Shown piece after piece: positions 1,184 to 17,526 of a stretch of DNA of 17,526 bases. The stretch is from NCBI GenBank assembly GCA_016839815.1, contig JAEOTM010000067.1, positions 1-17,526 on the forward strand, in the 5' to 3' direction. This stretch comes from Candidatus Hodarchaeota archaeon. GTDB taxonomy: Archaea; Asgardarchaeota; Heimdallarchaeia; Hodarchaeales; Hodarchaeaceae. The notes under the pieces are model-generated. The model saw only the letters and a list, made by a program, of their open reading frames with translations. It ran no database searches and was not told the DNA's origin. Within the stretch, counting starts at the first letter, position 1, and every line of letters begins with the position of its first letter. Made by a program: the position numbers and the translations under genes.

Positions 1184-2889
1184 ATGGCAGATTTGCTCCA
1201 ATTCATTTTAATACTCTCCCCTTTTGCCTTGGCGATTTATTTGTTGGTTATAAAACGCCGGAAAGCAGACTCAACAGGAGTTTTAATCTGGTTAATAATA
1301 TCTATACTTGCATTTTTCTTTTCAACTTCAGTTCCCGACATTATGATAATTTCTATTGCTGGGATCATAGATTCATTTAAAATAACGTTAATGGTTGGAA
1401 CATCTATCTTTATGATTACCTACATGGGAGAAGCTGGAGCTTTAAAGCGAATAATCATTTTTATCAAGACCCTAAAGGATCTCATCTTGCATGGCAAATT
1501 TTATTCCTGAATTTTGGTTTTGGATGTTTTCTTGTAGCAATTGGTGCTACACCAGTCTCAATCTTACCACCGATTATGATCGCTCTTGGGTTTCCTCCAG
1601 TTGTAGCTGTAGCTATACCAGCAATTGGATATGACCCATTAACTACTTATGCATTACTTGCTATTCCAGTAGTTGCATTTACAGGTGAAATGAGTGTTCT
1701 ATCAGATCTTGGTATTCTACAATCATCTGCACCTACCCTCCAAGAGGTTGGAATGACTTTCAGTTTATACATGCCCCTGGTATCTACAGGTATCGCAATA
1801 GCTATGCTATATTTAGCAGGTGGAGGGAAAATGATAAAAGATCCTAACTCAATTATTCTAGCTTTATTAACAGGAACCACAGCTGGAGTAATCGCTGTTG
1901 TGTCAAATTATCTTGGTGTAGTCACATTAACAGGTATCCTCTCAGGAATTGCTGTAATTATAGTTCTAGGTCTATATGCCAAATCTCAAGGATACCACAT
2001 TATTAATCGGACGGGTTTATCGGAGGAAGAGAGATTGTTTGAAAAACAGATGTCTTTACGGACAGCTTTCTCACCATGGATACTCTTAATCATTTTTGCT
2101 TGCATAACAAATTTGATTCCATTCGTTTTTCATGTTTTATTTAATGAATTAACTCTTCCAATTCATATAGGTAGTTTTACTGTAAAAACAAGACTTTTTT
2201 GGCAAGCTTATACCTGGGTAATGGTTGCTGTATGTATATCATTCCTTATTATTCCTACTGATAAGGATATCATCAAGAAAACGATTTTAAAAATTAAAAA
2301 ACGCGCTTTTTGTCCAATGATCGCCTCCACGGCATTCTTTGCAGTAGCTTGGATAATGAATAACTCCTCTCCAGAGAATCCATCAACGAATATGATCGCA
2401 ATACTTTCAGAATTTACCTCAACGAATATGGGTTTAATATTTCCTTTATTAGTTCCCCTTATTGGTTTTTTTGGGGGCTTTGTTTCAGGAAGTGAGACTT
2501 CTTCCATTGTAATGTTTACACGTTACCATGTAAAAACAAGTAATTCCCTTGGATTAGATCCTATGACAATTTCTACAGCAAATGGAGTAGGAGGAGGATT
2601 GGCAAGTGTCATAACTCCTGCAAAAGTACAGAATGCCGCAGCTACTATTGACCAAATTGGTATAGAAGGACAGGTGATAAGAAAAACCCTGCGTATCTCT
2701 TTGATGATGATTGCACTATTATCTGGAGTTACACTTCTTTGGGCTGTCACCTTCCCTACAATTGATCTGATACTTGTTTCAATACTAGCACTTATGTATT
2801 TGATTGTACTTACTTTCCTATTCAGTTTTGGCCGTTACTATAAACACAAATCGTTTCAAACACCTATTCCGGATATGACAGACCTGTGA
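1184..2889 (+). pseudogene. lctP: L-lactate permease (LctP/LldP family) split by a single -1 frameshift near 1474-1477 (pseudogene, sequencing error or recoding)
   Basis: ORFs 1184-1510 and 1576-2889 join into one ~568-aa polytopic protein. The -1 frame reads GSHLAWQILFLNFGFGCFLVAIGATPVSILPPIM into the second ORF. LctP-like motifs GGFVSGSETSSIVMF and ANGVGGGLASVITPAKVQNAAA. Confidence 0.8.
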
Positions 2890-4235
2890 CTTTGCGAGAA
2901 AACCGATATGTTATTGGAATTCTTTTTCCATTTATGTATGAAATCGGATTAATTGAAGCTTATCTTTTCTTTATGGCAAAGAGAGTGGAGTTATTTCTCT
3001 TCTTACCAGCACTATTTCTTATATTTCCATCCTATATGTTTTATGTATATAGCCCATATATTATCCTAAAAGTCACAAATGCCGCAGAGAAGTATCACAA
3101 GGAACTATCTGAAGATTTAGACAAAATTTTCTACCTCGATACAATCAATCTTGAACCTGATATAAAGGAAGATCTCAGACAAAATATTCGCTTAATACTT
3201 CTTCCTGAGCTAAAAAATGTATTCAGACGAGGGTATATTAAACCATATTTTACCAGAAATGATGCAATCCCCAATGAAAGACTATGTTCTTTCCGAGAAA
3301 CCCTGTTCTTATTTTCAATATCTTTTGGTTTAATCAATGTAGTTAACACTGCAACGATTGCCTATCTTCACTATTCGTCTATAGACCTAGATTTCCTGTA
3401 CATCGATCAAATCGTAAATCTTCAAAATGTATTATTCTTTGGTTCATTGTTTCTCTCATTTGTTTTAGTGTCAGGTTTCTTATTTTTTCACTCACGCAAG
3501 ATTGTTACTACATTGATCAACCAATTATCTTATAATCTTGTTGTAACAGCTCATAGTGAAACTTTTAAGGATCAATCCAGGCATATAGAGCTTGAATCTC
3601 TTCGAAAATTTCCATTAGAAGATCGTTTGGGTCGTAAATTAGCTAGTAATTGGGATCTTGTATCAAAATTATATTTTGAATTTATCGAATCACCATTAAG
3701 TGAGGAAATTCGTGAATTCTCACAGAGAGAAGTAGCCAAAACCTTGGTTTTGAAACAATATTCCCAAATGCTAAGTAAAATGGATTTGTCACCTGACAAG
3801 CGTAAAGAACTGGAATTACAATTCTATCTTGGACAAGAAATCACGGGAGTTATCGAGGAGCTAGTGTCAACAGAAGAAGAAACCGAATCGATTAAGATAG
3901 ACATCCTTTACACAAGAAAAAAGCTAGAACAGTGGGAAGAAAGTACTAATGATGAACAAATCTCTACATTCCTATTTCTCTGGAGATCCGTTGAATCGCT
4001 CTTTCGTCACGCTCTTTGGAAACGAAATGCTTATCCAAAAGACGATCAATCATGGATTTCAATTGTAAATAGTCTATTACGAGAACGTTTACTGACAGTA
4101 CAAGAAAATAAATCCCTAAAGTTCATTCGACAGCACAGAAATGGTTTATTACACCGGTCTCAAGATCGATATGTCACTAAAGAAGATGTGGAAATTCTTC
4201 TGAAAATTCTGGAAAGAGTGTTGGATCGAGTGTAG
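2886..4235 (+). CDS. Membrane protein (about 4 TM) with helical region and C-terminal HEPN/DUF4145-like domain
   Basis: Two pairs of hydrophobic segments in the first ~200 aa. C-terminal WRSVESLFR followed by RNGLLH (R418-x4-H423). GTG start overlaps the permease TGA; true start uncertain. Confidence 0.65.
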   Translation: MTLRENRYVIGILFPFMYEIGLIEAYLFFMAKRVELFLFLPALFLIFPSYMFYVYSPYIILKVTNAAEKYHKELSEDLDKIFYLDTINLEPDIKEDLRQNIRLILLPELKNVFRRGYIKPYFTRNDAIPNERLCSFRETLFLFSISFGLINVVNTATIAYLHYSSIDLDFLYIDQIVNLQNVLFFGSLFLSFVLVSGFLFFHSRKIVTTLINQLSYNLVVTAHSETFKDQSRHIELESLRKFPLEDRLGRKLASNWDLVSKLYFEFIESPLSEEIREFSQREVAKTLVLKQYSQMLSKMDLSPDKRKELELQFYLGQEITGVIEELVSTEEETESIKIDILYTRKKLEQWEESTNDEQISTFLFLWRSVESLFRHALWKRNAYPKDDQSWISIVNSLLRERLLTVQENKSLKFIRQHRNGLLHRSQDRYVTKEDVEILLKILERVLDRV

Positions 4236-5083: not shown

Positions 5084-7681
5084 CTAGATTTCACTCATAT
5101 CGTATAAAATATAAACTTGTTCGTCCTTATCTTCTCTTATCCAAAAACTATAGTGTTCACCGACCATCGCTGATGCAGCCATTGTATAGATTGCACCAGT
5201 ATTGGCTTCGTTTTTCCTGACTAAGATACGCCACTCAGTATCATTATCGTTATCCCAAACTCGCATAATATAAATCTTCCAATCATTATTGTCTTGGCCT
5301 ATCCAATCATGATAAATTATAGTTCCATTTCTAATATACTTTGTTAAAGTCTGTCCAGTTGTGTTGTCAGTTCCAATTATCTGATAAGTCTGTTTGATGT
5401 TAGAGGTTAATCTTTGTTTAAAGACCACACTAGGTTCGGCATCAGAACGAGTTGTATACCCAATTATGTTTGGATTTGCTGCATCGACGAAAACTGCTCC
5501 TTTTAATTTATCTGCACCATTATTGACATAAATTATAAGAGAAACCCAAATAAGAACTGAACCATTATCAACTGTTGCTTTATAAAGGGTGGGTTGACGA
5601 ACTCGGTAATTTGCTAAGGACTCTCCAGGTTTCAAGGTAAGACTTCTTTCAAATTCGTTTTCTAGATCATCCATCACATCATCAGGGGTATGAACTCCCT
5701 TTAAACCACCCCGTTCATAATGCCGAAGATCAAACATCGTCATGGTAGTGTTTTCAACAGTAATGGCAATGACATTCTCAACATTACTTGTAGTAGTTTT
5801 CCTGTAATAGATTCTCCCAAACCAATTTCCTTCTTTCAGTAAATAGTGATGAGGTCTGAGGTAGTAATCATCTTCCTCAAATCCTGTTTCAAATCCAATA
5901 TCAATAAATCTGTCAGGACTCGTGGGAACTGTAAATAATCCTTTGGAGCTAAAATCAAATTCAAATTCTCCTGTTTGTTGATTTGATCGAATATAATTCC
6001 CAGCACGGTCTGCTGTGGCTATAAAAACGGAATCAGAAATTGCCTCAGGATCAAACTTTGTAGCTTCTTCTACTGTAAGCTTTTCATAACTTCCATCTCC
6101 TTTAATTATTAATACCCCAGCAGGAACTTCAAGCCCCCATTCATTATATTTCGACATTTTCAAGAGCCATACTGGTTCACCAACATCACTAGGATATCTT
6201 CTGTACGGATCAATAAAGGAAATGCCATCATTACCAATGAAAGCGTCGGGCATGATATTCAAGGCTAGGTAGGAGATGTCGTTATAACCATTTAATCCCC
6301 AGCCATATTTCATTTCCTTAAAGTTGATTTCAATGTGTTCAGGGATAGGATCATCTAGAAAAACTCTTACATAACCCGCGATGACATTTGCATCAGGATT
6401 GAATTGTGATTCATACTTCATGGGAATAATCCAAGCAGGTCTTCCGTCAATCATTCCAACCATATCTTTATCATCCATTATGGTTAGAGCATACGGTTTA
6501 GGAGGACTAGAGGGACTTGCTTTAGAGATATCTCGTGCTAAATCACTAGAAACCAGTCTTAAATTTGATAAATTAACTGGAAAATCGTCTATTGGATTAT
6601 CTGCAATTTTGATGTCAGAAAAAGCTGTTTGATGAGTGAAAAAAGTAGGAGTAGTTGAAAAAATGGGTTGTAGGACGGTGAATGAAGTTAAAGTAACCAT
6701 TGAAATGAGAAGAAGACTGTAAAATTTCATCCGATCTTGATCTGAAGGAGTTTTTATCTGAAAACTCATTAAACCAAATTTATCTAGAGGGAAAAATAAA
6801 GTAAATGCAATAATACATAATTCTATTAGAATTAATATGAGCATTATTATTATTGTGAACTCTACAGCTTTCCCAGAATATATTGACTCCCCAAAGTTAT
6901 GAATGCTATTAAGTAAATCATGAATGATTAATAGGAAAGCAAAACCACCAATAAAACTACCAAAAATCCAAAAATACACTCTCGATTTTGTTTCTTCAAA
7001 TTCTCCTGCGTACCTCTTACTATCCTCTACACTACTAAATCGATATTTAATGACCTTTAAGGGAACTAAAACTGTTAAAATCAGGAACAATGTGAAGAAA
7101 ATGTCATTAAACAAACCAAGAAGCAGGGCAGATAAACGATGAACATAACTAATATTCAGCGAACCACTACTCGCAATTATCGACTGGAATAACCATAAAT
7201 CTATTGCAGTACCAGCGATTAAGGGGATCCCACGATTATAAATTTGTGTAAAATCTTGAAAGTTATTATTAAACCAACGAGTTAGTATGTTCCTATCTGA
7301 GCTTCTCTCCAGAGGCTCTTGTGGAGCTGTAAAGAAATCTCGAGCAATAATTATAGCAAAAATGAATACTAAATACCATGGTATTGCATTTAAAGTCATC
7401 ACCAGTGTTCGAAGGAAGATGTGTTCCAGTGAGGGAGTGAATCGTCCTGTATATGAGAATGATAATAGGTACTGGACCATGCTACCAGCAGTAATCAATT
7501 CAATTAGTAACCAGAGTATGTTTACAATAGCTACTCCTAACGTAATCCAAAAAAGTCCAAGTAATCCGCTTTTCAGCCTCTCCTTTTTCGTATCGTGTTT
7601 GAAAAAAGCTTCAGAGATAATTATTGGAATAATCAAGATCACATAGAATGGGAGATTAAGAATCAATAAGATATCTAGCAT
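5084..7681 (-). CDS. Large uncharacterised membrane protein: ~8 N-terminal TM helices plus ~520-aa beta-rich soluble (probably extracytoplasmic) domain
   Basis: 865-aa ORF; hydrophobic segments to about residue 342, then a hydrophilic aromatic/Gly-rich domain. No catalytic motif recognised. Confidence 0.8.
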   Translation of the reverse strand: MLDILLILNLPFYVILIIPIIISEAFFKHDTKKERLKSGLLGLFWITLGVAIVNILWLLIELITAGSMVQYLLSFSYTGRFTPSLEHIFLRTLVMTLNAIPWYLVFIFAIIIARDFFTAPQEPLERSSDRNILTRWFNNNFQDFTQIYNRGIPLIAGTAIDLWLFQSIIASSGSLNISYVHRLSALLLGLFNDIFFTLFLILTVLVPLKVIKYRFSSVEDSKRYAGEFEETKSRVYFWIFGSFIGGFAFLLIIHDLLNSIHNFGESIYSGKAVEFTIIIMLILILIELCIIAFTLFFPLDKFGLMSFQIKTPSDQDRMKFYSLLLISMVTLTSFTVLQPIFSTTPTFFTHQTAFSDIKIADNPIDDFPVNLSNLRLVSSDLARDISKASPSSPPKPYALTIMDDKDMVGMIDGRPAWIIPMKYESQFNPDANVIAGYVRVFLDDPIPEHIEINFKEMKYGWGLNGYNDISYLALNIMPDAFIGNDGISFIDPYRRYPSDVGEPVWLLKMSKYNEWGLEVPAGVLIIKGDGSYEKLTVEEATKFDPEAISDSVFIATADRAGNYIRSNQQTGEFEFDFSSKGLFTVPTSPDRFIDIGFETGFEEDDYYLRPHHYLLKEGNWFGRIYYRKTTTSNVENVIAITVENTTMTMFDLRHYERGGLKGVHTPDDVMDDLENEFERSLTLKPGESLANYRVRQPTLYKATVDNGSVLIWVSLIIYVNNGADKLKGAVFVDAANPNIIGYTTRSDAEPSVVFKQRLTSNIKQTYQIIGTDNTTGQTLTKYIRNGTIIYHDWIGQDNNDWKIYIMRVWDNDNDTEWRILVRKNEANTGAIYTMAASAMVGEHYSFWIREDKDEQVYILYDMSEI

Positions 7682-9905: not shown

Positions 9906-10238
9906 TTGGCAGATGATTCGGTATTATTCATTATACAGGTTTTTAATGCAATTTGTTGTTTAATTGGATTTATCTTCTTTTTTTCTGCATTTAGATACGC
10001 TCAGAAGATCTCGAAATTGTTAGAAGAGACTCGTATCGTTAAAAGGTGGAGAATTGCGACTATGTTAGTCGGGGGGTTTTCGATAGGGTATCTTGGCAAT
10101 ATTGTATTAATTTTTTTCGTAGATTTATCAGTTCTTCTTATAATTGAAGCTCTTGTCTTTCTTGGTGGATCAGTATTTGTTCTCTTGGTCTTTACACTCG
10201 CCTATCAAACTTATGAATTAATCTATACTATCCCATAG
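9906..10238 (+). CDS. Small 3-TM membrane protein
   Basis: Three hydrophobic segments; TTG start preceded by AAGGTGA. Confidence 0.75.
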   Translation: MADDSVLFIIQVFNAICCLIGFIFFFSAFRYAQKISKLLEETRIVKRWRIATMLVGGFSIGYLGNIVLIFFVDLSVLLIIEALVFLGGSVFVLLVFTLAYQTYELIYTIP

Positions 10239-11826: not shown

Positions 11827-12207
11827 TCACTTTAATCGTGGTGGGATACTCTCCCAAATTTTTTCATTTTGTTTAATAAGAAATTCAATAGCATCAGAAA
11901 AAGTATACTCTGATTTATTACTCTCAAATTTCAGACGTCTTAAGATATCGTGAGCATCGGGCCTCAAGAGGATTGTCTTTGAACTCTTCGTTACTTTATT
12001 TTCTCCTGGATTTTTCGATTCAATTCTATGACGTTTTTCATCGAAATTTGTGAGTTCATTTTCTAAGGTTTGAGAACTATTTTGTATCTTACCATCTAAT
12101 TTTAGGAGAACATCACTATAAGATTTCTCCTTTAGCTCAAATTTTGCCCAGCGTAGCATTTCCCATGCCTTACTAGAAATCTTAACATTTTGGGCTTCTT
12201 TTGACAC
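11827..12207 (-). CDS. Tandem-duplicated ribbon-helix-helix (VapB/CopG-like) DNA-binding protein
   Basis: Two internal repeats: NVKISSKAWEMLRWAKFE..KSYSDVLLKL and TILLRPDAHDILRRLKFE..YTFSDAIEFL, both matching the archaeal RHH pattern TI.I...A...L...K....SFSD.I..L. GTG start with GAGGT RBS. Confidence 0.75.
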   Translation of the reverse strand: MSKEAQNVKISSKAWEMLRWAKFELKEKSYSDVLLKLDGKIQNSSQTLENELTNFDEKRHRIESKNPGENKVTKSSKTILLRPDAHDILRRLKFESNKSEYTFSDAIEFLIKQNEKIWESIPPRLK

Positions 12208-12244
12208 AAGTCTTACCTCTTCTGAATATTATTGTTCCATTCAC

Positions 12245-12254
12245 TTTTATAAAA
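12245..12254. promoter_or_regulatory. Palindromic TATA-like element TTTTATAAAA between divergent genes
   Basis: About 38-47 nt upstream of the RHH start codon and abutting the repeat array. Confidence 0.5.
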
Positions 12255-12334
12255 CTTTCGGGTGTTACGGGTATTTCGTAAGGTATATATATGGCATGTG
12301 TTACGTATGTTACATGAATTCCATGTATAACTTC
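12254..12334. repeat. Degenerate tandem array of nine 9-bp units, consensus TRTTACRTR (putative operator)
   Basis: Units in exact 9-bp register: ACTTTCGGG, TGTTACGGG, TATTTCGTA, AGGTATATA, TATGGCATG, TGTTACGTA, TGTTACATG, AATTCCATG, TATAACTTC. Confidence 0.75.
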
Positions 12335-12376
12335 TCATCTGGAATTCAATAAATAAAAGGAAAAAGTGAACTAAAA

Positions 12377-12730
12377 ATGAGTGACTTTGAAGATTTAGAT
12401 TTTGATCTTGAAGAAACAGCAACTGTGAAGGCTAAAACACCTGCACAGTCGAAAACACCCGTAACTGGGGTTCAGGCTGGTCCAAAGAAGAATATTTTCT
12501 TTAAATCAACTGTTGGTCCAGAGAGAACTGAAAAACTCTCCGTTGGTGAAAACACTCCTGTGAGAGACGTCCGAGATACTCTAGCAAATATCTTTGGATT
12601 AGATCCTGATGATTTCCATCTTTCTCACGCTGGAAGAACTCTTGACGAAAGTGCTCCAATAGGTGAGTATGGAATAGAAAATGGTGATGAAATCCTCTTA
12701 ATTCCCCAGTCAACTGCAGGTTGGAATTAA
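12377..12730 (+). CDS. Ubiquitin-like modifier 1 (beta-grasp; acidic N-tail; C-terminus STAG-WN)
   Basis: Ub-like AGRTLDESAPIGEYGIENGDEILL; G115 followed by a 2-residue extension; first gene of the E1-E2-JAMM-RING cluster. Confidence 0.88.
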   Translation: MSDFEDLDFDLEETATVKAKTPAQSKTPVTGVQAGPKKNIFFKSTVGPERTEKLSVGENTPVRDVRDTLANIFGLDPDDFHLSHAGRTLDESAPIGEYGIENGDEILLIPQSTAGWN

Positions 12731-12892
12731 TCAGAGGATTAATTCACATTTTCTCAATTTTTCTAATAGGAAAATCCCACTTACAAATAAATCCAGAATT
12801 AAACTCTACTCTTCCGATTAAACAGTATTTAATTAAAAATTCAGATAGATATTTATGGATTGATTGTTATGAAAATGATTGTATTCTCGCTA

Positions 12893-12908
12893 CAGATTTT
12901 AAAATCTG
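12893..12908. promoter_or_regulatory. Perfect 16-bp palindrome CAGATTTTAAAATCTG with TATA-like core
   Basis: Directly visible; 72-87 nt upstream of the likely Ubl2 ATG, in a 249-bp intergenic gap. Confidence 0.5.
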
Positions 12909-12979
12909 GAACACCTTCATTATCAACAGATGAGAGTTTTCCAGATCTTATCCTAGAGAATACAAGGAACGATGTAATC

Positions 12980-13330
12980 ATGTCGGAAAATGAAGAGTTT
13001 ATTGAATTTGAGGAAGAAGAGGAGGAGGAACAAACTGATCCATCAATTCAATCCAAAGTTCCACGATCCAAGGTTCCAAGTGGAGAGCGAATTTCATTAT
13101 TCTTTCGGTCGACAATTGGACCAGGGGAAAAACAAGAAAAACTAACAGTTGACCCTGAGATGCCTGTTCGGGAACTAGCGGAGACAATTGGGGAAATTTT
13201 TGCATTAGATCCACAAGATTTTCACCTTTCAATCAGTGGTCGAACTCTGGATACTGATGATGTTTTATCGAATTACGATCTTGAAAATGGGTTAGAAGTT
13301 CTTATTATTCCTGTAAGTACTGCAGGTTAA
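12980..13330 (+). CDS. Ubiquitin-like modifier 2 (116 aa; acidic N-tail; ends STAG-stop)
   Basis: 42 of 78 aligned core positions identical to Ubl1 by manual count. Start moved from 12860 to ATG 12980 because MSENEEF parallels MSDFEDL, the lengths then match (116 vs 117 aa) and AAGGA lies upstream. Confidence 0.88.
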   Translation: MSENEEFIEFEEEEEEEQTDPSIQSKVPRSKVPSGERISLFFRSTIGPGEKQEKLTVDPEMPVRELAETIGEIFALDPQDFHLSISGRTLDTDDVLSNYDLENGLEVLIIPVSTAG

Positions 13331-13354
13331 ATTATTCTTAAAGGTGGATTCACT

Positions 13355-14593
13355 ATGTCAAATTTCACGAGTAAAACGCTGTCAAAGGAAGAAAAAAGAC
13401 GCTTTGATCGTCAATTTCGACTTCCTGGATGGAATCAAGAGATTTTAAAACAAAGCTCTGTCCTGATAGCAGGGATCGGAGGTTTAGGAGTAGAAATCGC
13501 TAAAAACCTAGCCATGGTTGGTGTTGGGCACTTAGTACTCGTGGATCTTGATACAATTGAATATTCTAATTTAAATAGACAGATATTGTTTATTGGCGCT
13601 CCTGAAGGTGCTCCAAAAGCTGAAATGGCTGCAAAAAAACTTCGGGAGTTGAATCCCTTTATCAAAGTTGATGCGTTTAATTGTCCCCTCCAAGATGTTC
13701 CTCCTCACATTTATAGTGAGGTTGATCTGTATATCGGAGGCCTTGATTCTATTGAAGCACGTTCGGAATTAAATCGCAGAGCAGTACATAATAAGAAATT
13801 TCTTATCGATGCAGGCACAGCGGTCTATAATGGACACGCGTATGTGGTTTCTCCGTTTAACAATGCATGTTTGGAGTGTGATCCATTAACTGAAAGGGCA
13901 CAGGATCAACTTGGAGCATGTACACTGGTGGGAAAACCTCGTAGACCTGCTCATTGCATACTTAAGGGACAATTACATTTTGAACAGAAGAAAGGAAGAC
14001 CAGTCAACATTTTACATTCAAATGAAGTTCAAGAAGTTGTAGCTTATGCAAACAAGCTTTTGAGGAAACACTTCCCTCGGGAAGACCCCTTTTCTGTGAA
14101 TCAGGTTATCCAGATCATTGACAACCATGAACCTACTGTTATTACCATTAATTGTGTTATGGCATCAATTCAATCCCAAGAAGCAGTTAAGATATTACAT
14201 CATCTTCGCACACCTAAGACAGAGGATAGTTTAGGTAGTATCCAATTGAATTATCTCATATATAATGGTTTAACAGGAAAATTTTACGAAATAGAAAAAC
14301 CTCGAAATCCTAAATGCGAAATGTGTGGAGAACGCAGAACCCCTATTTACCGTATTAAGGTAAAGAAAAAATATCCTCTAGTACAGTTAATAAAAAGATT
14401 CTCTGAGGATAAAAAGTACCCTATTGATTCTGAATTTCCCCCAACGATTTTTAAAATTGATTCTTCTGAACTTGGGGAAATTTCTTTAGAGCAAACTGTA
14501 TCCAAAGCAGGAATCAAGGATTGTGAGACTGTTCTTGTGACAGGTTTTGATGATGGATCACAAGTCTACCTTACATTAAAATTGGATGGTTAA
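13355..14593 (+). CDS. Ubiquitin-like activating enzyme E1 (ThiF/UBA family, UBA3-like architecture)
   Basis: RFDRQ, GIGGLG, DLDTIEYSNLNRQ, Zn pairs CLEC (172-175) and CEMC, catalytic Cys189 in ACTLVGKPRRPAHCI, probable C-terminal ubiquitin-fold domain. RBS AAGGTGG. Confidence 0.93.
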   Translation: MSNFTSKTLSKEEKRRFDRQFRLPGWNQEILKQSSVLIAGIGGLGVEIAKNLAMVGVGHLVLVDLDTIEYSNLNRQILFIGAPEGAPKAEMAAKKLRELNPFIKVDAFNCPLQDVPPHIYSEVDLYIGGLDSIEARSELNRRAVHNKKFLIDAGTAVYNGHAYVVSPFNNACLECDPLTERAQDQLGACTLVGKPRRPAHCILKGQLHFEQKKGRPVNILHSNEVQEVVAYANKLLRKHFPREDPFSVNQVIQIIDNHEPTVITINCVMASIQSQEAVKILHHLRTPKTEDSLGSIQLNYLIYNGLTGKFYEIEKPRNPKCEMCGERRTPIYRIKVKKKYPLVQLIKRFSEDKKYPIDSEFPPTIFKIDSSELGEISLEQTVSKAGIKDCETVLVTGFDDGSQVYLTLKLDG

Positions 14594-14599
14594 TATATT

Positions 14600-15127
14600 A
14601 TGTCGATTCGCATTAAACGTATTGCAGAAGATTATAATCAATTAAAAACCCTCTACAAGCAGAAAACAATTAAACAGTTGAAAGCATTTCCTGGAGAGAA
14701 AAAAAGCGTTGAGCACATAGCTGTACTGCTTGAAGGACCCAAAGGAACCCCCTATCAAGGGGGGAAGTTTATGCTTGAAATTAAGTTTGGACCAAATTAC
14801 CCATATTCTCCACCTTTTGTCCGTCTCCATACTCCAATTTGGCACCCGAATTTCTGGCCAAAACCAGACGAATATAAAGGAAAACGAAATATTTGTCTTG
14901 GATTAGTGGATCCCGACTTAATTGGAAAACCACAAGGATGGTCTCCATCAAAAAATATAACTACGGTAATTTATTCAATTTTAGCCATGTTTAATATTGA
15001 CGAGGCTTACACTAATCCTCATGATGTTTTTAACAAGAAAGCGGCAATGGAATATCTAAAGGATAAAGGAAAATTCAAAGAAAAAGCACGAAAAATTACC
15101 AAAAAATACGCAAAGAAGAAGTGGTAA
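14600..15127 (+). CDS. Ubiquitin-conjugating enzyme E2 (UBC fold)
   Basis: GPKGTPYQGGKF, NYPYSPP, WHPN (HPN at 82-84), sole Cys99 in NICL, WSP, and FNKKAA. Confidence 0.94.
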   Translation: MSIRIKRIAEDYNQLKTLYKQKTIKQLKAFPGEKKSVEHIAVLLEGPKGTPYQGGKFMLEIKFGPNYPYSPPFVRLHTPIWHPNFWPKPDEYKGKRNICLGLVDPDLIGKPQGWSPSKNITTVIYSILAMFNIDEAYTNPHDVFNKKAAMEYLKDKGKFKEKARKITKKYAKKKW

Positions 15128-15172
15128 TTGATACATGAAAATCAGAAAGAATCACAATAAGGAAGCACAATA

Positions 15173-15985
15173 ATGCCAAGTAAAAAGGATTCTCAAACAA
15201 AAAATTTGTTTGAATTGCTTCTCAGAGATACTGCTATGAACTATAATCCTGATAACTCCACTTTAACTTTAAAATTTCCAACAGCTTCTGAAACCAAAGA
15301 AGTTCCTCAAACAGAGGAAACTCTCACCTTAAAAAAGGATATCTCAGATCAGAGAGAACAGATACAAGAAGATGATGACCTAGACCCTGAGGTTGATCCA
15401 GTTAGAGTTAAAATTCAATTAAGAGCTTACATTCGACTTAGCCTTCATGCGTTAAAGTATGCCAATTCTTCTATTCCACAATCAGAGTGGGTTGAAGTCA
15501 TTGGCCTTTTGACAGGTCATATCGAAAACAAAGATACACCACTTGCGTGCTTGGTAATAACCGATGCATTTCCTGTAGGACATGGAACGAATGTGAACGC
15601 TGAAATCGAGGACCCCCAAAGTATGGTTCGAGTATTTAACGAAAGTCGGAAAAAAAGGGAATTAATACTTGGATGGTATCATTCACATCCTTCATATGGA
15701 GCATTCATGAGTTCGACTGATTATCGAACACAAGTTCGATATCAAAGACTAGGGACAAAAGGATCTCAGCTTTCTGCACCAATAGCTCTTGTTATTGATC
15801 CAACTAGAATATCTAGACGAACTTATGGTTTTAAAATCTTCAGATTGAAAAAAGATTTGAAAAACTGGGAAGAACCTCGCTATGAAGTTTTAAATTGTCC
15901 TTTAGAAAGTCTTCCTGAATTAATCAATACACTACTACCCTTAGCAGAAGGGAAAACGATGTTCTTAGAATATGATTATGAATGA
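15173..15985 (+). CDS. JAMM/MPN+ metalloisopeptidase (Rpn11/CSN5-like)
   Basis: E108 in EVIGLL; GWYHSHPSYGAFMSSTD (H170, H172, S180, D183); TQ..YQ; ALVIDP; ~75-aa charged N-terminal extension. Confidence 0.93.
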   Translation: MPSKKDSQTKNLFELLLRDTAMNYNPDNSTLTLKFPTASETKEVPQTEETLTLKKDISDQREQIQEDDDLDPEVDPVRVKIQLRAYIRLSLHALKYANSSIPQSEWVEVIGLLTGHIENKDTPLACLVITDAFPVGHGTNVNAEIEDPQSMVRVFNESRKKRELILGWYHSHPSYGAFMSSTDYRTQVRYQRLGTKGSQLSAPIALVIDPTRISRRTYGFKIFRLKKDLKNWEEPRYEVLNCPLESLPELINTLLPLAEGKTMFLEYDYE

Positions 15986-16008
15986 GAAGATGAGGTCGTG
16001 AAATCTAT

Positions 16009-17121
16009 TTGGTCGGAAGAAATGTTTATATCTCCGTTTTTCTTACGGGATTGGTCTTTGCAATCTTAAGCCAAATTGCTAACCCGGAAACTACGGCCTC
16101 TATCACACTAATTTATATTTCAATTGTAAGTATCTTATTGATTAAGCTCATAGACGAATGGCGTTATTATCGTTCATATAATGCCCCTCTTGCATCAGCC
16201 ATTTTTGTTACCGTACCTGCTGTAATTGCAATTGGGGGATCTCTAATTGCGTTTTCCGCAACATTAGGAGATCAAGAAAATTTTCTACAGAATTTATTGA
16301 TAGAGATGAGTCTGAATTTAGAAGTACTCCAATTAGAGTCTTTTTATCTATATCTAAACTTATTTAGTTTATTCTTCTGTTTACCTTTCTTCATCATTCT
16401 ATCAATCGTATTTAGACGATACTATTCAGGACGGTATCCTAATATTTTCATTTATAGACGTCGATTTCCATCCGAGTCATTAATTGCCCTTAATGTTGGT
16501 ATTCTGATAATCTTTATAGTTTTCTGGTTTGATCAAAAAACAATAGAGATTAGTTCTTTATTATTCCTACTCTTCACTATTCTGACCTTTATTCAAAATT
16601 ATATTATGAAATTCGTCATCATCCCATTTAGACGTAGTCCTAGGCCTTCAAGAAGTGAATCCTTTACACGAAGAAGATCAACTAGTCCTTCACAGGTTTC
16701 TAGGACAACTACTCAATCGAATTCACGAATCTCTCCCACCAGTAGATCTCAAAATGCTATTAGAAGCACTCCACGAAGATCGACGATCCATATAGCGCCA
16801 CCAGTCCAAGTTACAAGAAGAAAAAAACGAAAATTGACCCCTGCACTTATAGCGAGCTTAACCCCAGCAGGTCAGAATATTACAATGGAAAATTTTCGCT
16901 GCATTCAATGCTATGAATATCTAACTGACACCGAAAGACAAGTTGTCATCTGTCCTCACTGTAAACATCCCAGTCATGCAGATGAGTTTCAGAAATGGCT
17001 GGAAGTTTCCAATATTTGTAGTCGGTGTAATAAACCAATTAATACAGTAAAAATGATCAGGATTTCGGGGCCGAGTTATCAGAAAATAATTCAAATGTTT
17101 CGGAAGAAGTACAACAATTAA
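16009..17121 (+). CDS. Polytopic membrane protein with C-terminal RING-H2-like finger (putative E3 ligase)
   Basis: About 6 hydrophobic helices (aa 1-207), Arg/Ser-rich linker, then CIQC-x13-CPHCKHPSHADEFQKWL-x5-CSRC. TTG start, exact start uncertain. Confidence 0.82.
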   Translation: MVGRNVYISVFLTGLVFAILSQIANPETTASITLIYISIVSILLIKLIDEWRYYRSYNAPLASAIFVTVPAVIAIGGSLIAFSATLGDQENFLQNLLIEMSLNLEVLQLESFYLYLNLFSLFFCLPFFIILSIVFRRYYSGRYPNIFIYRRRFPSESLIALNVGILIIFIVFWFDQKTIEISSLLFLLFTILTFIQNYIMKFVIIPFRRSPRPSRSESFTRRRSTSPSQVSRTTTQSNSRISPTSRSQNAIRSTPRRSTIHIAPPVQVTRRKKRKLTPALIASLTPAGQNITMENFRCIQCYEYLTDTERQVVICPHCKHPSHADEFQKWLEVSNICSRCNKPINTVKMIRISGPSYQKIIQMFRKKYNN

Positions 17122-17139
17122 ACAGGGTTTGAATCGATT

Positions 17140-17526
17140 ATGGCTATACGGCATTCTATCGCTTGGTTTATCATGCTTATTGGTGTATCGGCAACAATAT
17201 TCTTTTTTATACAAGATGATGATGCATTAGCTCTTAATATTCTATTTCTATCAATCTATACAGCCATCACAATTCTTTATTTCTTACGAATATTTTATTA
17301 TGTAGATCATCATGCATCATTAAACGAAATCTATTTTCTCTCTCTGGCCAACATCATTCCACTGGTAATTATCCTCGTAAGTCCCTATTTTCCAATATTT
17401 GAAGAAGTTCTACTCTCTTTTGAAGTAAATATGTTACCCTCGAATGAATATATTGAACTTCAGATCGCAGTGACTTCACTACTCGCTTTTCCTTATTTAG
17501 TGGTTTCCACTGCATTGTTAATCAGA
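17140..17526 (+). CDS. Membrane protein, partial (runs off the right edge); apparent paralog of the TM domain of the upstream RING protein
   Basis: Manual translation gives 129 open codons from ATG 17140: MAIRHSIAWFIMLIGVSATIFFFIQDDDALALNILFLSIYTAITILYFLRIFYYVDHHASLNEIYF...SLLAFPYLVVSTALLIR. Starts 18 nt after the RING stop; not in the ORF track. Confidence 0.8.
   Translation, partial: MAIRHSIAWFIMLIGVSATIFFFIQDDDALALNILFLSIYTAITILYFLRIFYYVDHHASLNEIYFLSLANIIPLVIILVSPYFPIFEEVLLSFEVNMLPSNEYIELQIAVTSLLAFPYLVVSTALLIR

Follow-up and report, generated by a model that had tools for sequence, protein, structure and literature searches.

A 17.5-kb contig of an Asgard archaeal genome, analysed here over its complete length and called the window below, ends in an operon (12377-17526, up to the contig end) that probably encodes a self-contained ubiquitin-like conjugation cascade, separate from the Gly-Gly ubiquitin/ESCRT system. 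The nearest named relatives of the window are Hodarchaeota and 'Heimdallarchaeota B3_Heim' metagenome-assembled genomes. Seven open reading frames (ORFs), all on the plus strand, encode two ubiquitin-like modifiers (Ubl1 and Ubl2), an E1, an E2, a JAMM protein, a transmembrane (TM) protein that ends in a RING-type domain (TM-RING) and a RING-less paralogue of its membrane domain. A sequence-only reading of the window had proposed this co-oriented cluster, and ORFs, spacing and Pfam domains confirm it: the intergenic gaps from Ubl2 onward measure 24, 6, 45, 23 and 18 nucleotides (nt), with about 250 nt between Ubl1 and Ubl2.

Modifiers, enzymes and the membrane RING protein

The enzymes are readily placed. 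The E1 matches the Pfam ThiF model (E 1.5e-51), and its closest solved relatives are UBA1, UBA7, UBA3 and UBA2 (E 1e-34 to 1e-27), well above MoeB-only enzymes and UBA5; the alignment extends over UBA3 residues 30-327, and UBA1, UBA7 and UBA3 score 1e-34 to 1e-29 against 4e-12 for UBA5. The E2 matches UQ_con (E 6e-27), with UBE2R2/Cdc34 as its best solved relative (E 2e-17), and the JAMM protein matches JAB (E 4.8e-16), with Rpn11, CSN5 and the Rpn11-like protein of Caldiarchaeum as its closest solved relatives. The catalytic motifs, which had been read as intact, are invariant in 17 orthologues: GxGxxG, R19/Q20/R22, D131, the catalytic-type C189 and the zinc pairs C172/C175 and C321/C324 in the E1; H82-P-N84 and C99 within the UBC fold of the E2; and E108, H170, H172, S180 and D183, the full metal site and E...HxH...S..D motif of the JAMM protein. 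Across the phylum the E2 retains 57-86% identity (mean column identity 74%).

Ubl1 exceeds the curated cut-off of the Pfam ubiquitin model (E 3.4e-8), and Ubl2, 46% identical to it, matches weakly (E 2.5e-3). The TTG at 12860, previously taken as the start of Ubl2, is unsupported; because orthologues align from MSENEE at ATG 12980, that codon is the most likely start. Profile searches with the modifier matched ubiquitin, ubiquilin and Caldiarchaeum ubiquitin, the last of which (6fno) is also the top Foldseek match, with ISG15 and ubiquitin among the best solved structures; together with two fold searches, the profile search groups the family with ubiquitin, ISG15, ubiquilin, NEDD8 and SUMO. 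In the AlphaFold2 (AF2) model of Ubl1 the beta-grasp spans residues 37-110 (predicted local distance difference test, pLDDT, >90) and residues 1-29 are disordered, and in an alignment of 18 orthologues the disordered N-terminal tails carry an acidic block followed by S-K-T-P-like motifs. The C-terminus ...L-I-P-x-S-T-A-G is invariant in 18 of 18, ending in Ala-Gly with a single terminal glycine rather than in the di-glycine of a Caldiarchaeum-type cascade. More broadly, IPxS[T/I/V]AG terminates about 100 of 130 Ubl-family genes, and 60 of the 89 STAG genes stop exactly at the glycine. Ubl1 has no Lys or Arg past the 'GR' in its last 29 residues, so that trypsin would leave a long remnant, out of reach of anti-K-GG enrichment. 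Ubiquitin-family beta-grasp modifiers with an exposed or exposable C-terminal glycine are therefore present, and the two tailed single-glycine modifiers of the sequence-only reading hold up in the orthologue alignment, the AF2 model and the loci alike.

Why two modifiers? All 14 Hodarchaeales loci whose 5' side is intact contain both Ubl1 (ending IPHSTAG, or IPQSTAG in the window) and Ubl2 (IPVSTAG). In a maximum-likelihood tree, built on 85 columns only and weak at its deep nodes, they form separate Hodarchaeales clades (support 99/97 for Ubl1 and 100/96 for Ubl2) nested inside a Heimdallarchaeia clade (99/98), and the two Loki-type copies group apart, and the duplications are therefore independent and old. 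Judging from this tree, Ubl1 and Ubl2 are old, separately conserved paralogues, which is new for Hodarchaeales. We rejected the idea of a switch between a pro-form Ubl1 and a mature Ubl2: the C-terminal extensions, 0-6 residues long, are not bound to one paralogue and among Hodarchaeales swap between them, and both modifiers mostly end at the glycine. Since a fixed division into pro-form and mature modifier is unsupported, the JAMM protein more likely serves deconjugation than maturation. A sulfur-carrier role of the ThiS/MoaD/SAMP kind was likewise rejected, given an E1 without a rhodanese domain and the presence of a canonical E2 and a RING domain.

The TM-RING protein belongs to a compact family, as a profile search of 1.84 billion representatives found only 98 proteins at E <= 1e-30. 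An AF2 model built on a 70-sequence alignment from this search (mean pLDDT 85.8) has six helices (residues 4-24, 30-56, 65-83, 118-140, 156-176 and 181-204), a disordered linker (R16, S16, T11 and P9 of 81 residues) and a compact domain at 278-370. The loops after helices 2 and 4 and the stretch after helix 6 are rich in Arg and Lys, so by the positive-inside rule both termini, and hence the RING domain, would face the cytoplasm.

We assign the C-terminal domain to the RING class because of its fold and not because of Pfam. VIA matches (Z 7.3-9.0) are led by 3lrq (Z 9.0) and Ring1b (7.9), followed by CHIP, Ufd2, Rad18, TRIM and TRAF6, and the top 50 Foldseek matches are RING/U-box throughout; with the whole TM-RING model, Foldseek against the PDB gave no match at E <= 0.001, and the ranking was still all RING/U-box. 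C298, C301, C315, C318, H323, W330, C337 and C340 are invariant in the 70-sequence alignment, residue 326 is Glu in 69 of 70 and residue 299 is Ile in 63 of 70, which gives the pattern C-x2-C-x13-16-C-P-x-C-x4-H-x2-E-x3-W-x6-C-x-R-C. His317 and His320 vary among TM-RING sequences and are therefore not ligands. Seven invariant Cys/His ligands and Glu326 occupy the eight ligand positions, and spacing and secondary structure suggest a cross-brace that has Glu as ligand 6 and is spaced in the C4HC3 style. Ile299 and Trp330 lie at positions through which known RINGs contact E2s, and their conservation, together with the RING/U-box fold, supports an E3 role; a complex predicted for the E2 and residues 285-370 (the RING domain) scored 0.21 (mark 0.32), a result that weighs neither way on binding. 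The polytopic membrane ligase of the sequence-only reading stands as a candidate on its six-helix AF2 domain and RING/U-box-fold C-terminus: in place of a small soluble RING, the RING-fold domain ends a 370-residue (aa) six-helix membrane protein.

In 34 of the 80 loci, all Heimdallarchaeia-type, the TM-RING gene is followed by the RING-less paralogue, which is about 181-199 aa long in its orthologues. Its relationship to TM-RING, asserted earlier, is real: hhalign of the two families gives a probability of 95.9% (E 6e-9, 162 columns), and pairwise BLASTP of TM-RING against a full-length paralogue is not significant (E 0.81).

Conservation across Asgard archaea and the other sets in the genome

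Of 400 Asgard genomes, 223 have a detectable TM-RING protein (19 of 21 in the window's family, 116 of 135 in the largest family), and some families lack it. Its neighbours are orthologous to the window's Ubl, E1, E2 and JAMM proteins in 16 loci spread over at least nine GTDB families, and 80 named loci anchored on the RING gene contain JAMM in 76 cases, E2 in 69, E1 in 67 and Ubl in 64, with most shortfalls at contig ends. The order Ubl-E1-E2-JAMM-membrane RING recurs in named loci of Hodarchaeota, Heimdallarchaeota, Loki-type, Hel, Hermod and Sigyn archaea. Gene order, on which the sequence-only reading had staked its proposal, is kept far beyond close relatives, and the operon is phylum-wide, not peculiar to the window's lineage.

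The surroundings vary by lineage. In Hodarchaeales a divergent ribbon-helix-helix (RHH) gene precedes Ubl, Ubl, E1, E2, JAMM, RING and the TM paralogue, after which comes a 233-aa protein. Other Heimdallarchaeia have E2, JAMM, RING and the TM paralogue, an opposite-strand 242-aa protein, and then Ubl and E1. The Loki-type arrangement begins with a divergent coiled-coil protein and runs through Ubl, a 264-aa protein, a winged-helix regulator, Ubl, E1, E2, JAMM and RING into housekeeping genes. The Loki-type protein of about 264 aa (e.g. L115:2016-2837, minus strand), which lies between two conjugatable Ubl genes, carries a membrane segment at its N-terminus and a Ubl domain at its C-terminus, the latter presumably non-conjugatable because it ends ...LIPSRKEKN without a terminal glycine. 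In non-Heimdall Asgard loci (L049:12072-13814 and L055:9691-11448, both minus strand) a HerA-like ATPase with a C-terminal Ubl domain ending IPSSRAG stands beside the operon, and a VWA-domain protein with a Ubl domain also adjoins it there.

The same genome holds three eukaryote-type E1-E2 sets and a fourth, bacterial-type E1/E2-like cluster. One contig (C135; L015:1636-13641) encodes an 80-aa ubiquitin ending TGG-TNR, a 373-aa E1, a 150-aa E2, a 70-aa soluble RING that passes the Pfam cut-off (L015:10354-10566), UEV, Vps28, Yip1 and Rab/Arf-like small GTPases, which is the arrangement known from Hodarchaeia and, in reconstituted form, from Helarchaeia (10.1101/2023.07.25.550441; PMC9192718). 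The third eukaryote-type set, on contig C122 (L016:4702-10872), comprises a JAB protein and an E2 divergent from a 262-aa protein, a 109-aa Ubl ending IKGG, a 412-aa E1 and a 596-aa protein whose C4C4 RING-like end (CxxC-x11-CxxC-x4-CxxC-x11-CxxC) is a possible RING. The bacterial-type set, on contig C189 (L017:4271-9592), has a Prok-JAB protein, a ThiF-type E1 and two small E2/RWD-like proteins and adjoins a MoxR AAA ATPase and a DUF4129 protein. The window's proteins share only ~30-33% identity with those of the C135-type Gly-Gly set. Because the genome contains that characterised-type set, complete with its own E1, E2, soluble RING and ESCRT-I, the Ala-Gly pathway is separate from it. The distinct pathway claimed earlier is borne out on this point, and the characterised Asgard ubiquitin operon, membership of which would have told against the claim, is the set on the other contig. 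Of the ubiquitin-type sets examined in this genome, the Ala-Gly operon is the most widely conserved.

A lysine motif shared by the modifiers and their neighbours

What might the modifiers be attached to? The tails of the window's modifiers repeat a short motif, with two K-T-P at residues 19-28 of Ubl1 and two K-V-P in Ubl2. Across the loci, K[TVI]P exceeds its frequency in 300 composition-preserving shuffles in five families: the Ubl tails (172 observed, shuffled mean 6.1), the Hodarchaeales 233-aa Lys/Pro-rich protein (92 against 19.9), its 242-aa analogue in other Heimdallarchaeia (98 against 12.3), the Loki-type coiled-coil protein, at conserved positions that include both ends (152 against 6.3), and the RHH regulator, once in the inter-domain linker of 10 of 10 orthologues (11 against 1.0). 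The enrichment is 5-28 fold, and none of the 300 shuffles reaches the observed count in any family. Six control motifs (reversed, permuted, with Arg for Lys, with other middle residues and with Ala for Pro) were unenriched, except that P[TVI]K is mildly over-represented in the tails. Genome-wide, K[TVI]P has a background of 0.06 per 100 residues, and only 19 of 8566 open frames, both Ubls among them, have two K[TVI]P within 12 residues. As the motif is centred on lysine and common to the modifier tail and its genomic neighbours, it is most simply an acceptor site; K[TVI]P is most likely a candidate attachment code that marks acceptor lysines, with a docking motif as the alternative.

Ten of the 16 Hodarchaeales loci have an RHH orthologue oriented divergently to Ubl1, and the RHH protein probably regulates the operon. 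HRIxxK[T/I]P is kept between its two RHH units in all 10 orthologues, and the window copy reads SKNP. The divergent RHH regulator and the downstream Lys/Pro-rich protein are conserved neighbours of the operon, which is new for Hodarchaeales. The intergenic region between regulator and operon contains TATA-like elements (TTTTATAAAA at 12245-12254 and TATATATA at 12284-12291), GTTAC(G/A) repeats and a perfect 9-nt inverted repeat (TGAATTCCA/TGGAATTCA, 12315-12348) whose arms lie 16 nt apart, 29 nt before the Ubl1 ATG; the inverted-repeat region is a likely operator for the RHH protein.

Table 1. Features of the operon and its divergent regulator, in window coordinates.
Feature	Position	Strand	Details
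Ubl1 modifier	12377..12730	+	117 aa, C-terminus ...IPQSTAG-WN; Pfam ubiquitin
Ubl2 paralogous modifier	12980..13330	+	116 aa, C-terminus ...IPVSTAG-stop; orthologue alignment
E1 activating enzyme	13355..14593	+	412 aa; ThiF
E2 conjugating enzyme	14600..15127	+	175 aa; UQ_con
JAMM/MPN+ isopeptidase	15173..15985	+	270 aa, acidic disordered N-terminus; JAB
TM-RING protein, whole gene	16009..17121	+	370 aa; membrane domain, linker and RING/U-box-fold domain
TM-RING six-helix membrane domain	16009..16620	+	residues 1-204; AF2 pLDDT >90
TM-RING disordered Ser/Arg/Thr/Pro-rich linker	16621..16839	+	residues 205-277; pLDDT <50
TM-RING C-terminal RING/U-box-fold domain, candidate E3 module	16840..17121	+	residues 278-370; fold and ligands
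RING-less membrane-domain paralogue	17140..17526	+	129 aa seen, cut by contig end; hhalign
Divergent tandem RHH protein, probable operon regulator	11827..12207	-	126 aa; weak Pfam VAPB_antitox/MatP_C RHH matches
Divergent promoter/operator region (inferred function)	12208..12376	.	TATA-like elements, repeats

Elsewhere in the window, two large ORFs (5084-7681, minus strand, 865 aa; 2886-4235, plus strand, 449 aa) have no Pfam match at E <= 0.01. At 1184-2889 (plus strand), a lactate-permease-like ORF (1576-2889) covers only profile positions 131-520 and is preceded just upstream by a 108-aa ORF without a Pfam match; the region is possibly a split or frameshifted transporter gene. A 110-aa ORF (9906-10238, plus strand) matches the STING transmembrane domain below threshold (E 5.8e-4, 20.7 bits against a cut-off of 28.1) and is probably just a small membrane protein.

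Proposed cascade, alternatives and known systems

How could these parts work together? In the cascade that we propose, the E1 would adenylate the C-terminal Ala-Gly of either modifier and form a thioester with it on Cys189, from which the modifier would be handed on to the E2 at Cys99. The six-helix protein would recruit the charged E2 through its cytoplasmic RING-type domain, so that lysines are modified at the cytoplasmic face of the membrane, and the RING-less paralogue would probably pair with the membrane domain of the ligase. The JAMM protein may trim the short variable C-terminal tails, such as the WN of Ubl1, and, more importantly, would remove the tag. Acceptor lysines in K-[T/V/I]-P could then give rise to chains on the modifier tails, to dedicated substrates and to feedback on the operon's own regulator. 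A fuller version, in which a dedicated E1/E2 and a membrane RING ligase of Asgard archaea carry out SUMO-style Ala-Gly tagging directed by K-[T/V/I]-P, the modifiers form chains on their own tails and modify their own regulator, and the ligase is a prokaryotic forerunner of eukaryotic membrane RING ligases, strikes us as conceivable and, taken as a whole, rather doubtful.

Several points weigh against the cascade or parts of it. Gene content, gene order, catalytic residues, folds and motif enrichment are observed; the chemistry at each step, the function as E3, the topology and the targets are what we infer from them. The Pfam zf-RING_2 match of the RING domain (E 0.04) is below cut-off, Glu stands in for the sixth Cys/His ligand, and the residue right after the last Cys is not basic. 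The membrane domain has no match in Pfam, NCBIfam or the Atlas that would inform on its function: an ESM Atlas feature search gave no usable match, and an Atlas shape search returned only Asgard hypothetical proteins and RING proteins, all with TM <0.5. NCBIfam has no name for any operon protein. As for the lysine motif, kinship within families inflates the significance of the shuffles, and its weight comes from recurrence across five unrelated families; the window's RHH protein has KNP instead of K[TVI]P, and the Lys/Pro-rich gene was not found in this 89.5%-complete assembly, where it would lie past the contig end.

The sub-threshold RING score and the Glu at ligand position 6 would also fit a membrane protein that is not an E3, its zinc domain being an anchor, receptor or substrate, with the E2 modifying motif-bearing targets directly as Ubc9 can for SUMO. 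With a mean column identity of 74%, against 25% for the membrane protein, the E2 is by far the better conserved of the two and could itself read K[TVI]P. However, the TM-RING gene is the operon's most constant partner, its zinc ligands, like Ile299 and Trp330, vary little or not at all, and its fold matches are all E3 RING/U-box domains, so we consider a non-E3 role distinctly improbable. Is the operon then simply the known Asgard/Caldiarchaeum-type ubiquitin operon in one more genome, with the Ala-Gly end and the membrane anchor as minor details of a lineage? Its part list is that of the reconstituted Caldiarchaeum operon (ubiquitin, E1, E2, RING and Rpn11-like protein; PMC5654768, PMC6043591), among solved structures the modifier is matched best by Caldiarchaeum ubiquitin, and surveys list Asgard E1, E2, ubiquitin and JAB as signature proteins (PMC9192718, PMC13037920). 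Yet the type that has been studied (10.1101/2023.07.25.550441) is represented here by the separate ESCRT-linked Gly-Gly set, the low identity between the two sets speaks against their being one, and the Ala-Gly end and membrane RING are constant across the phylum, not lineage noise. A full-text literature search turned up no paper that describes an Ala-Gly modifier or a membrane RING from Asgard archaea, and in recent reviews the Asgard ubiquitin system is linked with ESCRT alone, as one cascade (PMC9192718, PMC13037920). We therefore think this explanation unlikely.

In bacteria, operons of the Ubl-E1-E2-JAB kind serve defence (10.1101/2023.09.26.559546), PADLOC E1-E2 models match the adenylation domain of the E1, and a dedicated regulator suggests inducibility, all of which would suit an antiviral or stress-defence module of the bacterial Bil or CBASS-Cap2 kind. 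The PADLOC matches, however, cover only the generic ThiF region and, weakly, JAB, with none for the E2, Ubl or RING; the operon is near-universal and syntenic within families, as the 19 of 21 and 116 of 135 genomes cited above attest, unlike patchy defence islands; and its Loki-type flanks are housekeeping genes. There seems very little chance that defence is its role, and a self-contained conjugation cascade remains our preferred reading.

Hodarchaeales is the order often placed nearest eukaryotes, and the operon joins features usually deemed eukaryotic elaborations: parallel modifier pathways, a membrane-integral RING ligase and a tail-borne lysine motif, the last of which is suggestive of targeting at consensus sites and of chain formation. 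Provided that the biochemistry holds, the diversification of Ubl pathways and membrane-localised ligation both predate eukaryotes, as membrane tagging probably does. Concrete candidate natural substrates would then become testable in vitro, and in-cell tests may become possible now that Hodarchaeales strains have been isolated (10.1101/2025.02.26.640444). For the question of how eukaryotic ubiquitin signalling arose, the operon is clearly of interest.

Among known systems, UFM1 conjugation, to which the operon had been likened, does not fit the sequences: the modifiers match Pfam ubiquitin and not Ufm1, the E1 is of UBA1/UBA7/UBA3 type, the E2 has an HPN motif, and no UFL1 was found. Neither Ubl matched Pfam Ufm1 (PF03671) at E <= 0.1, and elsewhere in the genome that model gave only a chance match (E 0.63); the E3_UFM1_ligase model (UFL1) had no match in the 89.5%-complete genome; and two fold searches with the modifier did not list UFM1 in their best 50 matches, an absence from a list and not an exclusion. 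'Ufm1 homologues' have been reported by structure in nine Asgard clades (PMC12962969) and may or may not be the Ala-Gly family; if they are, the Ufm1 assignment is not borne out by our sequence tests.

The operon of Caldiarchaeum subterraneum (PMC5654768, PMC6043591) resembles ours in its ubiquitin-family modifier, single-chain E1 with a small Cys domain, HPN-Cys UBC E2, JAMM protein and RING-type protein; its ubiquitin is structurally closest to the window modifier, and its Rpn11-like protein matches the window JAMM protein (E 1e-11). By contrast, the window modifier ends in Ala-Gly and not Gly-Gly, has a 35-aa tail with lysine motifs and exists as two paralogues; its RING has the pattern C4-H-E-C2 and ends a six-helix membrane protein, whereas that of Caldiarchaeum is small and soluble; the gene order differs; and the window adds the RING-less membrane paralogue and a dedicated RHH regulator. 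The ESCRT-linked Asgard cascade, with its Gly-Gly pro-ubiquitin, E1, E2, small RING E3 and UEV-Vps23/Vps28 (PMC9192718, 10.1101/2023.07.25.550441), belongs to the same phylum, uses the same enzyme families and is present in the window's genome on another contig. That set differs from ours in being paralogous at ~30-33% identity, in its soluble 70-aa RING, in having no JAMM gene in the neighbourhood examined, and in its linkage to ESCRT-I, Yip1 and small GTPases.

In SUMO conjugation, Ubc9 reads psi-K-x-E, and SUMO2/3 form chains on Lys11 of their tails. The likeness to the window is a single one, a flexible N-terminal modifier tail bearing a lysine motif that recurs in candidate targets; the window motif is K-[T/V/I]-P, the modifier ends in Ala-Gly, the E2 is not particularly Ubc9-like, and a JAMM protein stands in place of the Ulp/SENP cysteine protease. 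The earlier comparison with endoplasmic-reticulum-associated degradation stands for architecture, as an analogy only, and the fold lends it no backing: HRD1 (9uav_B) is the third match of the membrane domain (Z 7.9, 113 residues, 7% identity), below the chance level for helical bundles. Membrane-domain sequence homology to Hrd1 or MARCH is not detectable, and the window protein has six helices where Hrd1 has eight and MARCH two or more; it also differs from these ligases in its Glu at ligand 6 and its sub-threshold scores with Pfam RING models, and from Hrd1 in its C4-H-E-C2 pattern instead of the RING-H2 C3H2C3. With RING-H2 and RING-CH domains the window RING shares the Trp four residues past ligand 6, and its C3-x2-C4-x4-H5 spacing is in the C4HC3 (PHD/RING-CH) style; with Hrd1/gp78 and MARCH/Doa10 the whole protein shares a polytopic membrane domain, a flexible linker and a putatively cytoplasmic RING-type domain.

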